Shown here piece after piece: positions 14,501 through 55,502 of a stretch of DNA of 64,000 bases. The stretch comes from Euglena gracilis. Its lineage: Eukaryota. Position numbers and translations under genes: made by a program. Below the pieces are notes generated by a model, which saw only the letters and a program-made list of their open reading frames with translations, was not told where the DNA came from and ran no database searches. Within the stretch, counting starts at the first letter, position 1, and every line of letters begins with the position of its first letter. Where the stretch lies: positions 32,465,455-32,529,454 of the forward strand of contig CP154954.1 in the NCBI GenBank assembly GCA_039621445.1, written 5' to 3'.

Positions 14501-17500
14501 AGGTCCTCAGGGGGGTTTTATCTTTGGGGGGGGGACGGGGGTGCTGGACCACCCCGCTGCCCGGGGAGGGGGGTCCGGGACCCCCCCTTCCCCCTTCTCT
14601 CACTTAATACCCTGCCCCCAGCCCAGGGTTGTACAAGAATCCCCAAAATTCTATGGGCGGGCTGCCCCCCCAGCAGGCCTTCCCGTATTTCGAGGGGTGC
14701 CGGTGTTTAATTCAAAGTTTTCCTTGGGCAGTGCGTGGTGGGGGGGGGTTGACCCACTCCTTCCCACCTCCTGGGTGGGGGGTCAGACCCCCCCCACACC
14801 AGGCTTTCGAGCACAGCCGCGCCCCACTGCAACCATCCAGCACCTTCCATGATATGTTTCAATTCAGTTTCACCAGTGGTTTGTCTCTGAGAGTTTCCCA
14901 CAGGCTATATGATGATGTTTCGGATTGCGTGTTATGGCTTCACAGGAAACGAGGTCATGAAGTCTGTCCTGGCACAGTACAATGTTTCGGAGTTGCTGAC
15001 GCGCCGGCAGGATGTCAGTGCTGAGATCAGTACGCATCTCGTGAACCGCTGCAAGCAGTTCAACGTGATGGTGGAGGTGTGTGCTTTACCTTTTGGCCAA
15101 TTGTTTGTTAGAAATCAACAGGAAATAGCTGCAGGCATTTAAAGTAGTGCCATGTCGAATTGGTTTAATCCCATCTAATAAGACAGGGCCTCTACAGGAG
15201 CAGTGTTCAAACAGGAGCACCCCATCTTGAACAAAAAGCATTCACCACACAAGCACTCCTCCCCAGTCCACCCAAACAGAAGGATGGGAAGCCTTTCAAC
15301 GGAGTTGCGGCAAGCTATTGCATAATTTTCCCAAAGGAAGGAAGTATTTTTGGCTAAGAAGGCATTTTTTTGACTTTCCCCCTCCCCACAAATGCCTGAT
15401 TCATGTGGGATTTAAGAGGTGAGGGATGAAGAACAAGATGCAATGACGTCTATGACATAAGCCGGAACCAAAATTATAGAGCCCCCCTTGCTGGAAGCTG
15501 CGTGACGTCCAATAAATGTGCAAAGCCCTCATACAGCCTGCATTTATTTTTCATAGTTCGCACATCTGTTCAGTTTTTGTAAGAGGTTTGGAAGTATTGC
15601 TTTTTTTGTTTCCAAGCAGGTTTTTCAGGTGCTTCTTTGAGTCCCGGGTAGTGCCAGGAGCAAGTGTGGAGTAGGTTGGGCTCTTCGCAGGCACATCATG
15701 TCCCCTTTTTCCGCCCCCTCCTGCAGGACGTGGCCATCGTGCACCTCACCTTTGGGCGCGAGTACTCCTCCGCTGTGGAGGCCAAGCAGGTGGCGCAGCA
15801 GCAGGCGGAGCGGGCTCGCTTCCAGGTGGAGCAGGCAGTGCAGGAGAAGCGCAGCAAAGGCAGGGTCCGGTCGGGTCGGGGCAGTTTGGCGGGGGGGGGG
15901 GGGGCTGGGCTCTGGGGGATGGCTGAAAGTTCGATATGAGATGAAGGCTGCTTCCGGGTTTCGTTGATTTCTTTTGGGTCTTTGGGCGAAGAAAGTTTGC
16001 AGGTTCAGGTGGTCTTTGGGGGGACAGGCACCTTGTGTTACGTTGAGGACCTTCAGGACCACCCTCAGGTGTAAGGGGCAAAAAAAACAGCCGATTTGGG
16101 GATTGAACGGGGTCAAAATTAGAAAAAATATAAGGCCAAAAAACCCACATTTTGACGTTTTGGGTGGATGGGATATGGTCCAATATTGCCAGAAATCATC
16201 TCCCCCCCCCCCCCGAAGTCGATCTGTTTTTACCAAAATGTGGATATTCTCGGTCATTGTTCCTGTGGGGTTTTGACTGAATGTGCGGGGCGGGTTTTTT
16301 TTTTTGCTTGAGGAAGTCCTTTGAGAAATGCACCTGTATTTGTCATGCTGTATCAGTGACAGCACCCTGCATCCAATTGTCCTTGCAGAGGGTGAGGCAG
16401 AATCAGCTAGGCTGATCGGAGATGCCGTCAAGAAGAACCCGGGGTGTGTAGTGTGTGGCATGCCTCGTCCACTCAATGGATGCCTCACTTCCAACAGGCA
16501 TATGTTTTAACTCTTCCTTTTGATTGCTGAGGTTCCCCCATAGGCATGTTTCTCATTCACTTGCAATTGAACATTCCCAGTGTCAGCTGCAAAGGTACAA
16601 TTTTCCTCACCCCACACCGAGACCTGACATCTACTACGAGTGGTAAATATGAAAGGCAGCTTTTTTTTTGATTTCTGGCGGGGTCCCACTGTAAAGCGAT
16701 CCAGGGACTGAAGGCACTTCTGCTTTGGGCCTGGAAACTTTATATGTGATGGGTGGGGGGCGGACGACCACCCCCACCTCCATCATCCCAACCCACTTTT
16801 TCCGGTTTTTTTTTTCATATGTGTCAGGATTTTTAAATAATTTTGCTTCGGTGCTGAAGGAATTTTTCTTAATGCGACCACTCCTCCCATGCCCTCCTGT
16901 GCCTGCTCCGAAGGTGAACATGGCGAAACACATTTTTGGGCATTTTCAGGGGGAAGACAAGAAACCCACGCTTCCTTTTGTTAAAAATGGGACCCTTTTG
17001 CAAATAAAGGCTGTCATAAGTCATTGTAAAATCTTGTTAAACTTGGAGGAGGTGTTTAGATCTGGGGTCTCCCAGATCTGGTCTCCAGATGTGCATGCAA
17101 AAGGACACGAAAGGTATTGCTTTTTTGCCATCTAAAATCTGCAGATTGACACCCACAGTTGAATGTTTCCAGGTTTGCATTTTTGGGTGGGGCTTCAATT
17201 TCGCCCCTGCATCGAAACAGCCACCTAAATTTTCCACCTCAAAAATAATAATTTTCGAACAATCAAAATTGGCAATCAATTGCCAGTTTTTTGATGTGTT
17301 TTAAAAATGCATGAACTTTTTTTGCCAAAATAGAATTGGTTGACGTAAAATTAATTAGCTGTCCCAATTTGTTTGATCTAATGGCAAGCCCTTTCCTGGA
17401 AAGGAGTTAAAAGGATTTCCATTTGTGGATGGTTTGCCATTCAGAATACGTCGGTGGTTTTTTCAATTTAAGCCGATCGTTCTACTGGGGAGGGGAGAAC

Positions 17501-53700: not shown

Positions 53701-55502
53701 GATCACCCCCCCCCCCCCAATCAGAGGACAGACAAGGTTGTCTGCTGCGTGCTGAACACTTCAGGTGCATGCTGACTCCTGTCCCGGCGGCACCCTGGCA
53801 GGAATTTCCACCCGGAGGCCGAGGACTGGACAGAGCAGCCGGAGCTCCGCAAACTGCTCGGCACGGATGCGTCGTGGGAGAAGCGCCAGCTCGTGGCATC
53901 TGTGTTCAGCGAGACCCCGACGGCCACGGAGGCCGCAAGCACGCAGGCTGATGGGCCAGCGTTGGCCAGAGCAAAGGTTTGTTTGGATGCTGAAGGAAGG
54001 ATGTGCGTGGGAACGGCTGCCAAATCACGTCCATTTTCAAAAGTGTTATCATGTTGTGCCAACCGTCCCCTACCAAAACTCAGAACTTTCTCCAACGCCA
54101 TTATGAAGATGTTTACCAAACCAAATTCGTCAAGTCTGTGGCAAATGATCTTTCGGATCGCCCTGCCTTAGACCAGAAGGTTTGGACCCCCCAACTGAGC
54201 ACAGGAACGCACGAGGAAAGGGCATTTCCTTGAAAGGCAAAAGTGGAAATGTGGTTTTGAACAAACAGGTGCCAATACAACGAAGGCTCAGCGACACCAG
54301 AAAAAAAATTGATTTCTGGCATCTTTGGAGAGGTGCGCCAATCCACCCAAATCATAGCAAGACTCGGTTCAATTTTACAATTTCCCCTAGTTTTGAGCCC
54401 TGGATGGCAGCTTGGCTTCTCGTGGCATTTTTTTTTGGGGTATGTTCCACTTAAGAATCTCCCTGGTCTGAAGCGAATGCCTGGACAGGGGTGGTAGGTC
54501 ACGGGAGGTGGGGTGGTCGTTGCTTGGGTCGCGGCCGGCCGCGGCACCTGCCTCCCATAAACCAGCCTCCCGTGAGTCCCCATCGGGACTGGATGTCCGG
54601 CGGTGATGGTCCCGCCGTGGCCCCTCCGGGCCCCCACCCTGGCCCCAGCAGCGGCGGCGGCGGGGGCGGAAAGGCGCCGGCCGGGCCGCAGGACTCCGAC
54701 AGCGACAGCGACGGGGACGATGCGGGGCGGCGGCGGCGGCGCACGGTGAGCAAGGAGACGCTGCAGCGGCAGCTGGAGGAGGAGGCCAGGGCAGGGGGGG
54801 GGGGAGGGGCTGGCCGGATTGCAGTCGCCGGGGCCCCACTGGACCTGCTTTGAAGGTCTCTTTTGACGATTTTAGCAAATGGTGGATGCCTGTCGACGTC
54901 AGCTCGCCTTGGGTAATGCAAAATGTGGGTTTATTCTGGTTTCTGACCCCTCCCATGTGAAGACCCCCAGCTTTAAGCAGGATTTCAAGACCCGCATGCA
55001 AAAATCAAATGTCCCCGCACATCGTTTGGGGGTTTCCTTGGAATTTTCCTTTCCTTTCTTCTTTGTAGAAGTTGAAGTGGATATTTTCTCCCACACCAGC
55101 ATTCATGGCCGAGAGGGGTACTTAAAAAAAAAGCTCTCAGCGGCCCTCACACATGGTCTTCCTCTTTGAGGATGGATACAATTTGTGCCAAACCCCCCCA
55201 GTCCTGCCAGAGGTACAGTACACCCAGAAGGAGATAGACGAGCTGGGGTACGAGGATGTCATTGCGGGCGGCACCGTGAAGTGCCGCTTCAAGTACCGCG
55301 GCCATGCCTCGCCCTGGGACTAGTGCGGCTGTATTTGAACCACTGGGTCGTCAACTCACTCGGTTGTTTCAGTCGGAGTGACGGTCTCCCAGTCAGCCGC
55401 TGCTCAACCTCCCCACACCTGGGGCCACACACACGGCGAGGGCGGCGCATGCTCTCAACATCGACCCCATCCGCTTCGAGGGGCTGGACACCACTGACCT
55501 CC
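41635..55502 (+). CDS. KRI1: KRI1 homolog (40S biogenesis factor), multi-exon, 3'-partial. Exons 41635-41790, 42535-42609, 42994-43101, 43420-43595, 44088-44232, 44816-44848, 45011-45154, 45479-45511, 45612-45773, 46213-46290, 51828-51960, 52181-~52253, ~52531-52708, 53803-~53960, ~54590-54783, 55212-55299, 55457-55502
   Basis: Colinear KRI1-like motifs: VDKKYASTLLRRKREQELRLMRQKFG, acidic tract, EAFLKxYFINDGW, EDEEF..FEHAY..KYHHQEE, SLRRKESARKKRRE, KKKALQEKSALLKEIAG, EYDQLMAQVFNDDYY, and the C-terminal domain LGYEDVIAGGTVKCRFKYR/NIDPIRFEGLDTTDL. Confidence 0.88.
43964..44030 (+). repeat. (GACA)n microsatellite
   Basis: Direct observation. Confidence 0.95.
46213..46290 (+). CDS. KRI1: KRI1 exon
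   Basis: EDEEFTNNQEVFEHAYEEFKYHHQEE; GT donor at 46291. Confidence 0.8.
46885..50794. mobile_element. 3.9-kb TIR DNA transposon (CTTAG ends, 5-bp TSD), copy 2
   Basis: Ends CTTAGCGGTGCAAATTGCCC / GGGCAATTTGCGCCGCCTAAG; TSD TCTAC; extra internal blocks relative to copy 1. Confidence 0.88.
51336..51506. mobile_element. hAT-like MITE family D
   Basis: TIR CAGGCTTCTTTTTAA / TTAAAAAGAAGCCTG; TSD GGCCCGAC/GGCCCAAC (7/8). Confidence 0.82.
51828..51960 (+). CDS. KRI1: KRI1 exon
   Basis: ccgcag|; PSLRRKESARKKRRELQAEKEAERERTFQEEL. Confidence 0.82.
52834..53249. mobile_element. MITE-like element with repeated AATAGTGCTGC motifs
   Basis: Imperfect inverted ends CCCCCCCTAATAGTG / TACTATTTGGGGGGG; many internal motif copies. 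Confidence 0.55.
53365..53671. mobile_element. hAT-like MITE family A, copy 2
   Basis: Near-identical to copy 1; 8-bp TSD TTCAGGGA. Confidence 0.92.
55212..55299 (+). CDS. KRI1: KRI1 C-terminal domain exon
   Basis: VQYTQKEIDELGYEDVIAGGTVKCRFKYR. Confidence 0.88.

Follow-up and report, generated by a model that had tools for sequence, protein, structure and literature searches.

Nonconventional introns with paired ends interleaved with GT-AG introns at a Euglena gracilis locus

A stretch of 64 000 nucleotides from Euglena gracilis (GenBank assembly GCA_039621445.1, contig CP154954.1, positions 32 465 455 to 32 529 454 of the forward strand; hereafter the window, whose own numbering is used throughout) carries two classes of intron side by side. 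Thirteen introns that an earlier note had listed from the letters of this DNA are almost certainly euglenid nonconventional introns, that is, introns with a paired-end stem and without GT-AG borders that are spliced from the transcripts of nuclear genes. At this locus, removal is precise and occurs at the RNA level, the stem stands 3 nt from the 5′ junction and 5 nt from the 3′ junction, the ends pair far above chance, and GT-AG introns are interleaved with the paired-end ones. Beyond the 13, we found five further non-GT-AG introns, four from RNA and one from a protein, bringing the set to 18.

The class itself is already in print, and the locus is an ordinary euglenid locus. Published work, cited here by PubMed Central (PMC) number, describes pairing of intron positions +4 to +6 with −8 to −6, in which complementarity rather than sequence is kept (Milanowski 2014 and 2016; PMC4770533). 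It also describes the stem, purine preferences, junctions that slide through short direct repeats and one case slidable to GC-AG (PMC3935182), as well as an E. gracilis consensus of CCAGG/CCTG next to GT-AG introns without pairing (Gao 2024, PMC11170887). What the window offers is a clean, RNA-backed example of both classes in Euglena, of value mainly for annotation, and a case in which the published rule could be recovered from sequence alone.

Architecture of the paired-end introns

All 13 coordinate pairs of the earlier note show the same layout: three bases and a triplet at the start, a pairing triplet and five bases at the end, and a purine as the first base of the next exon. The 5′ core triplet is CAG in ten introns, CAC in two and CAT in one. 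Positions +3 to +7 read mostly CCAGG and positions −9 to −6 mostly CCTG, and 12 of the 13 introns start with a purine. Both pairs of ends that the note had quoted were located, CAGCGCCCACCA/TGGTGGGCGGTG at 43596–44087 with one internal mismatch and CATGCCTCGCCCT/AGGGCGGCGCATG at 55300–55456 with two. When the five added introns are included, the downstream purine is present in 18 of 18 cases.

We counted in-register pairs inward between intron positions from +4 and from −6, out of 12. The 13 listed introns reach 8–12 pairs, compared with a mean of 4.6 ± 1.8 for random position pairs in the window and 2–5 for five GT-AG introns. This difference bears out the proposal that paired ends, not GT-AG borders, define the second intron class. 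The proposed interleaving is equally clear, as GT-AG introns at 10424–14945, 15077–15726, 16444–24053, 44233–45010 and 46291–51827 lie among the nonconventional ones. In the two fully mapped genes (a prohibitin gene and the gene at 41.6–55.5 kb), 15 of 20 introns are nonconventional.

The single geometric rule that had been put forward, 3 nt before the stem and 5 nt after it, agrees with both sources of junctions: it fits the RNA joints of nine listed introns, and a tenth is fixed by the prohibitin protein. The exceptions are two added introns, 45512–45611, with 4 nt after the CTG, and 53938–54646.

We regard it as very improbable that these are spliceosomal introns with unusual sites (GC-AG, U12-type AT-AC or other) whose ends pair by coincidence. 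Such a reading can point to 54784–55211, which slides to GC-AG at 54785–55212, one base further on; to 53938–54646, which can end in AG behind a C-rich tract; and to the hybrid introns known from the literature, about 0.8% of all introns (PMC12501133). However, 17 of the 18 introns cannot be slid to GT/GC-AG, and their end dinucleotides vary (AA..GC, GC..GG, CC..GG, GG..AG and others), none being AT-AC; a U12-type test found AT...AC ends at no slide position of any intron. Moreover, the GT-AG introns of the same genes lack the pairing, and mutation of the stem or spacer abolishes splicing in published knock-ins (PMC12501133).

RNA and protein evidence for the junctions

Raw reads of two RNA-seq runs (X21, X24) and Logan contigs of two more (X1, X2) were mapped on window positions 36500–56000, which contain ten of the 13 listed introns. 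An index search with 41500–46500 had listed no RNA run; these runs were identified through their species label or through a match over a small fraction of words. There were 15 joints in this range among the matches listed. Nine of the ten listed introns match one of these RNA joints. Five are exact (42610–42993, 43596–44087, 45774–46212, 51961–52180 and 52709–53802) and three lie inside a slide of 1–4 nt (45155–45478, 54784–55211 and 55300–55456). At the ninth, 41791–42534, the joint runs from 41789 to 42535 with one T between the sides, a C>T difference at 41790, and is carried by seven X21 reads and by X1 and X2 contigs. Identical joints recur between studies, in as many as four runs. For the tenth, 36926–41014, contig pieces of both X1 and X2 have 41015 as their very first position, and 36864 is covered by contigs of equal depth; its joint was absent among the matches listed.

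When the 15 RNA joints are used to link the 16 exons, a single reading frame stays open for about 600 codons, starting with the ATG at 41635, and the other two frames contain stops. Because the joints chain these exons together, all introns from 41791 to 55456 belong to one gene. From its motifs we take its long, acidic product to be a candidate KRI1-like protein; PDB searches with two of its exons gave no match. Ahead of the X2 contig that starts at 41625, at the likely spliced-leader acceptor, stand adapter letters and a run of T that ends in C; we presume this run to be the tail of the Euglena spliced leader. At the other end of the gene, a further intron begins at 55503–55505, CCAGG stands at 55505–55509, and a search of the window for the next exon found none of the words of the loose contig end behind 55504.

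A second placement comes from protein. A search with the exon before 15858 retrieved P0001 (eukprot:EG_transcript_16185), a transcript-derived prohibitin of E. gracilis, and a second euglenid transcript protein. Residues 66–291 of P0001 are encoded by six window exons at 100% identity, which marks the host as E. gracilis or a very close relative and fixes five introns: 8574–10323, 10424–14945, 15077–15726, 15858–16374 and 16444–24053. Around 15858–16374, residues 185–228 and 229–251 match 15727–15858 and 16376–16444 at 100%, and the listed intron is the sole frame-keeping solution, bar a 1-nt slide. The human prohibitin-2 structure 8rrh_B in PDB is colinear across the same junction (upstream exon 186–222, downstream exon 225–247), with the two residues between accounted for. 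Pfam on single exons returned Band_7 at a sub-threshold E-value of 0.028. The added intron 8574–10323, also placed by P0001, has a run of nine pairs, 11 of 12 positions paired and no frame-keeping GT/GC-AG solution.

Eleven of the 13 listed introns are thus backed by RNA joints, a contig edge or a transcript-derived protein. The remaining two, 26894–26973 and 27082–27785, stand as predictions for which there are stop-free alternatives.

It is hardly credible that reverse transcription or assembly produced the junctions artificially, by template switching between short direct repeats. Many of them are slidable by 1–4 nt through short repeats, and such repeats are reported at 84.4% of introns (PMC12501133), as this explanation would have it; yet five of the listed junctions either cannot slide or lack a repeat, and the same joints appear in the raw reads of two studies and in the contigs of two more. 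Removing the introns also yields the 600-codon open frame and a prohibitin colinear with the human protein, and splicing restored function in published knock-ins (PMC12501133).

Table 1. Introns and other features of the window, in order of position. The arrow marks the boundary with the downstream exon; pairs are in-register pairs out of 12.
Feature	Coordinates	Strand	Ends, placement and support
Added nonconventional intron	8574..10323	+	AAA/TTT at triplet positions; between P0001 residues 107 and 108
GT-AG intron, prohibitin gene	10424..14945	+	Placed by P0001
GT-AG intron, prohibitin gene	15077..15726	+	Placed by P0001
Nonconventional intron	15858..16374	+	AGG-CAG...CTG-CATCC↓A; P0001 junction 228/229; 10/12 pairs
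GT-AG intron, prohibitin gene, 7610 nt	16444..24053	+	Placed by P0001
Predicted nonconventional intron, 80 nt	26894..26973	+	GCT-CAG...CTG-CCCGG↓G; strict published signature; 11/12 pairs
Predicted nonconventional intron	27082..27785	+	GCC-CAC...GTG-ACAAC↓G; 8/12 pairs
Nonconventional intron, 4089 nt	36926..41014	+	CCC-CAG...CTG-GCCGG↓A; two contig edges at 41015; 9/12 pairs
Likely spliced-leader acceptor	41600..41625	+	C-rich tract and AG; X2 contig starts at 41625
Nonconventional intron	41791..42534	+	CAG/TTG (third pair G-U); 10/12 pairs
Nonconventional intron	42610..42993	+	CAG/CTG; joint 42609→42994, not slidable; 7 X21 reads and contigs; 12/12 pairs
Added nonconventional intron	43114..43440	+	CAA/GTG (third pair mismatched); joint 43113→43441; 2 X21 reads and contigs; 10/12 pairs
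Nonconventional intron	43596..44087	+	CAG/GTG (third pair mismatched); joint 43595→44088; 2 X21 reads and contigs; 11/12 pairs
GT-AG intron	44233..45010	+	Joint 44230→45009; GT..AG with cut 2 places further right
Nonconventional intron	45155..45478	+	CAG/CTG; joint 45153→45478, slide 1; 2 X21 reads and contigs; 11/12 pairs
Added nonconventional intron, 100 nt	45512..45611	+	CAG...CTG, 4 nt after CTG; joint 45511→45612, not slidable; 1 X21 read and X1, X2 contigs
Nonconventional intron	45774..46212	+	CAC/GTG; joint 45773→46213; 7 X21 reads and contigs; 10/12 pairs
GT-AG intron, 5537 nt	46291..51827	+	Joint 46288→51826; GT..AG with cut 2 places further right; 16 X21 reads, 2 X24 reads and contigs
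Nonconventional intron	51961..52180	+	CAG/ATG (third pair mismatched); joint 51960→52181; 3 X21 reads, 1 X24 read and contigs; 9/12 pairs
Added nonconventional intron	52255..52594	+	CGA/TCG; joint 52254→52595; 7 X21 reads, 3 X24 reads and contigs; 9/12 pairs
Nonconventional intron	52709..53802	+	CAG/CTG; joint 52708→53803, not slidable; 5 X21 reads, 3 X24 reads and contigs; 10/12 pairs
Added non-GT-AG intron	53938..54646	+	No in-register pairing; joint 53937→54647, slide 4; 5 X21 reads and contigs
Nonconventional intron	54784..55211	+	CAG/CTG; joint 54781→55210, slide 4; 3 X21 reads, 1 X24 read and contigs; 11/12 pairs
Nonconventional intron	55300..55456	+	CAT/ATG; joint 55298→55456, slide 1; 6 X21 reads, 1 X24 read and contigs; 11/12 pairs
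Start of a further intron, 3′ end outside the window	55503..55505	+	255-letter loose end behind 55504 in X2

Departures from the published code and other counter-evidence

Knock-in mutagenesis, together with synthetic introns that splice, has set a strict code for nonconventional introns, 5′-N3CDG-/-CH'GN5-6↓R (Nomura 2025, PMC12501133); splicing depends on each of four elements, namely the CAG/CTG core, the lengths of the spacers, the extended helix and the purine (PMC12501133). Several observations weigh against assigning our introns to this class. Only 7 of the 18 conform to the strict code. The third core pair is mismatched in three RNA-backed introns (those starting at 43596, 51961 and 43114), the 3′ spacer of 45512–45611 is 4 nt, and 53938–54646 has no in-register stem. 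X1 and X2 are called RNA by guess alone, and the reads deviate from the window at several sites, possibly reflecting another strain. Finally, the two junctions outside RNA and protein coverage allow other solutions: for 26894–26973, 16 stop-free solutions with the strict signature (the listed coordinates included) and 27 with GT/GC-AG, and for 27082–27785, one with the strict signature and 16 with GT/GC-AG.

In E. agilis the strict code covers 61.2% of nonconventional introns and leaves 38.8% outside (PMC12501133), so the 11 of 18 departures seen here are within known variation, and the strict code is no criterion of membership. Further departures consist of paired but different triplets, namely CAC/GTG (twice), CAT/ATG, CGA/TCG, AAA/TTT and CAG/TTG. 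The code-breaking introns are natural test cases and no new class.

The most deviant is 53938–54646, with 4 of 12 in-register pairs, a CAG 6 nt in and spacers that sum to 11; neither GT/GC-AG nor the strict code occurs at any of its slide positions. Applying the rule to its CAG and CTG predicts a removal of 706 nt; the RNA joint shows 709 nt removed, a difference of one codon, in frame. There may be alternative junctions at this site.

Elements that knock-ins found essential are lacking in several RNA-backed introns here; the AAA/UUU intron at 8574–10323 is placed by protein, not RNA. A long flanking helix could perhaps replace the CAG/CTG core, in which case the real rule would concern geometry and stability, not a code in the sequence, and 53938–54646 might use another route; we hold this idea to be unlikely, though well short of negligible.

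The earlier note had further reasoned from its covarying triplets that pairing matters more than sequence. This is true in part: complementarity is kept in published introns (PMC4770533), but at the middle core position, where compensatory mutations have been made, just some paired combinations splice, so that sequence matters too (PMC12501133). Its remark that the excision machinery is not established matches the literature, which likewise calls the trans factors unknown (PMC12501133, PMC11170887). Both points are in published papers, and the observation as a whole is not new.

DNA-level removal and the origin of the introns

A last explanation, that the sequences are cut from DNA in expressing nuclei by programmed elimination or transposon excision and are never present in RNA, can be set aside as next to impossible: the intron ends do resemble terminal inverted repeats, and an origin from MITEs (miniature transposable elements with inverted repeats) has been proposed (PMC12501133, PMC3935182), but a run with the same species label contains a fraction of 0.73 of the words of 41500–46500, introns included, transcripts that still carry nonconventional introns once the conventional ones are gone are on record (PMC6221363), and a search for 8-bp target duplications was negative.

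That search relates to the likeness between nonconventional introns and MITE-like elements or Introners (PMC11282704; MITE hypothesis, PMC3935182). The two have terminal inverted repeats in common, and the 3 + 5 nt outside the stem would correspond to one 8-bp target duplication. Comparison of the 8-mers left and right of the stem gave 52 matching positions of 144, against 46.6 ± 4.6 in permuted, composition-matched sets (p about 0.15), and the best single 8-mer match was 6 of 8, at 26894–26973. An apparent excess over a whole-window null (52 vs 36.6 ± 5.5) vanished against the composition-matched permutation and was discarded. No other copies of the short nonconventional introns occur within the window; nested repeats are found in long introns only.

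Repeats in and beside the introns

An element of about 2.7 kb, 86–91% alike between copies, is found at 37241–39841, inside nonconventional intron 36926–41014, and at 46885–50795, inside GT-AG intron 46291–51827, so that both intron classes carry nested repeats. In 36926–41014, repeats common to intron 46291–51827 make up 81% of the length.

A repeat of about 313 bp is present in three copies, 95–97% alike, each in a different setting: 53365–53671 in nonconventional intron 52709–53802, 19400–19713 in GT-AG intron 16444–24053, and 56235–56544 in a tandem array. On the minus strand, X1 has a 265-nt contig over this repeat, with a high depth of 465.6.

The tandem array occupies 55530–64000 and has at least eight copies of a unit of about 892 bp, spaced 891–894 bp apart, most of them 98–100% alike and with a G+C content of about 67%. 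It begins about 25 nt past exon 55457–55504, so within the intron that follows in that gene, and extends as far as the window does. The array is covered by RNA runs (depth 18.8 in the size-fractionated X24, and an 874-nt contig in X2); a search of the whole window with Rfam gave no match, here or elsewhere.

The 26.6–41.2 kb region

Between the prohibitin gene and the 41.6–55.5 kb gene, the letters point to a further gene. Nine single exons were run against Pfam, and the exon downstream of 27082–27785 gave a UPF0489 match at E 0.017, below cut-off; the region is taken as a probable UPF0489-like gene. Homologue searches with its last exon and with the open frame 33335–33595 gave no match. HMMER with the first exon returned four weak multi-stretch matches of 32–42% identity, which were taken as low-complexity and rejected.

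The introns predicted at 26894–26973 and 27082–27785 fit the rule, with coordinates left unfixed by sequence alone. The parts at 26.6–27.9 kb and 36.8–41.2 kb may belong to one gene, and the count of three genes in the earlier note is plausible.

Two side observations concern this region. The stop of the upstream gene, at 41242–41244 (a contig reaches 41353), lies less than 400 nt from the likely spliced-leader acceptor at 41625, on the same strand. In a six-frame listing, long CA/GT dinucleotide runs at 35200–36320 appear as open frames of poly-(CV) and poly-(TH).

Proposed removal and comparison with known systems

In the mechanism we propose, bases after intron position +3 would pair with bases before −5, and the resulting stem would set both junctions side by side. 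On the 5′ side the RNA would be severed 3 nt upstream of the stem; on the 3′ side the cut would fall 5 nt downstream of it, usually with a purine next, and the exons would be joined. In the literature, removal of nonconventional introns follows that of spliceosomal introns (PMC6221363), and release in circular form is described for at least some of them (PMC6221363, PMC12501133). The factors that cut and join, described there as unknown, probably differ from the standard spliceosome (PMC11170887, PMC12501133), and the window gives no new handle on this machinery.

Splice sites that the structure of the RNA sets, and not the sequence at the borders, are also a feature of tRNA-type bulge-helix-bulge introns and of self-splicing group I and II introns. 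The conformation of nonconventional introns is nevertheless reported to be unlike that seen in self-splicing introns or tRNA introns (PMC6221363). The noncanonical introns of diplonemids (PMC12621601) are likewise euglenozoan, nuclear and without canonical borders, in a different lineage.

The closest system is the published class of euglenid nonconventional introns of E. gracilis and E. agilis. The introns of the window share with it the lack of GT-AG borders, the pairing of +4 to +6 with −8 to −6, mostly as CAG/CTG with an extended stem, the 3-nt and 5-nt spacers, and the purines at the start of the intron and of the downstream exon. They also share the presence of GT-AG introns in the same gene and a euglenid host with spliced-leader trans-splicing. 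Intron 54784–55211 slides to GC-AG, as does a case in PMC3935182, and the nonconventional share of 15 of 20 introns compares with 71.8% in E. agilis (PMC12501133). The strict code is found in 7 of 18 introns here vs 61.2% in E. agilis, a comparison between a small sample and another species, and from the published euglenid class the introns of this locus show no difference in kind.

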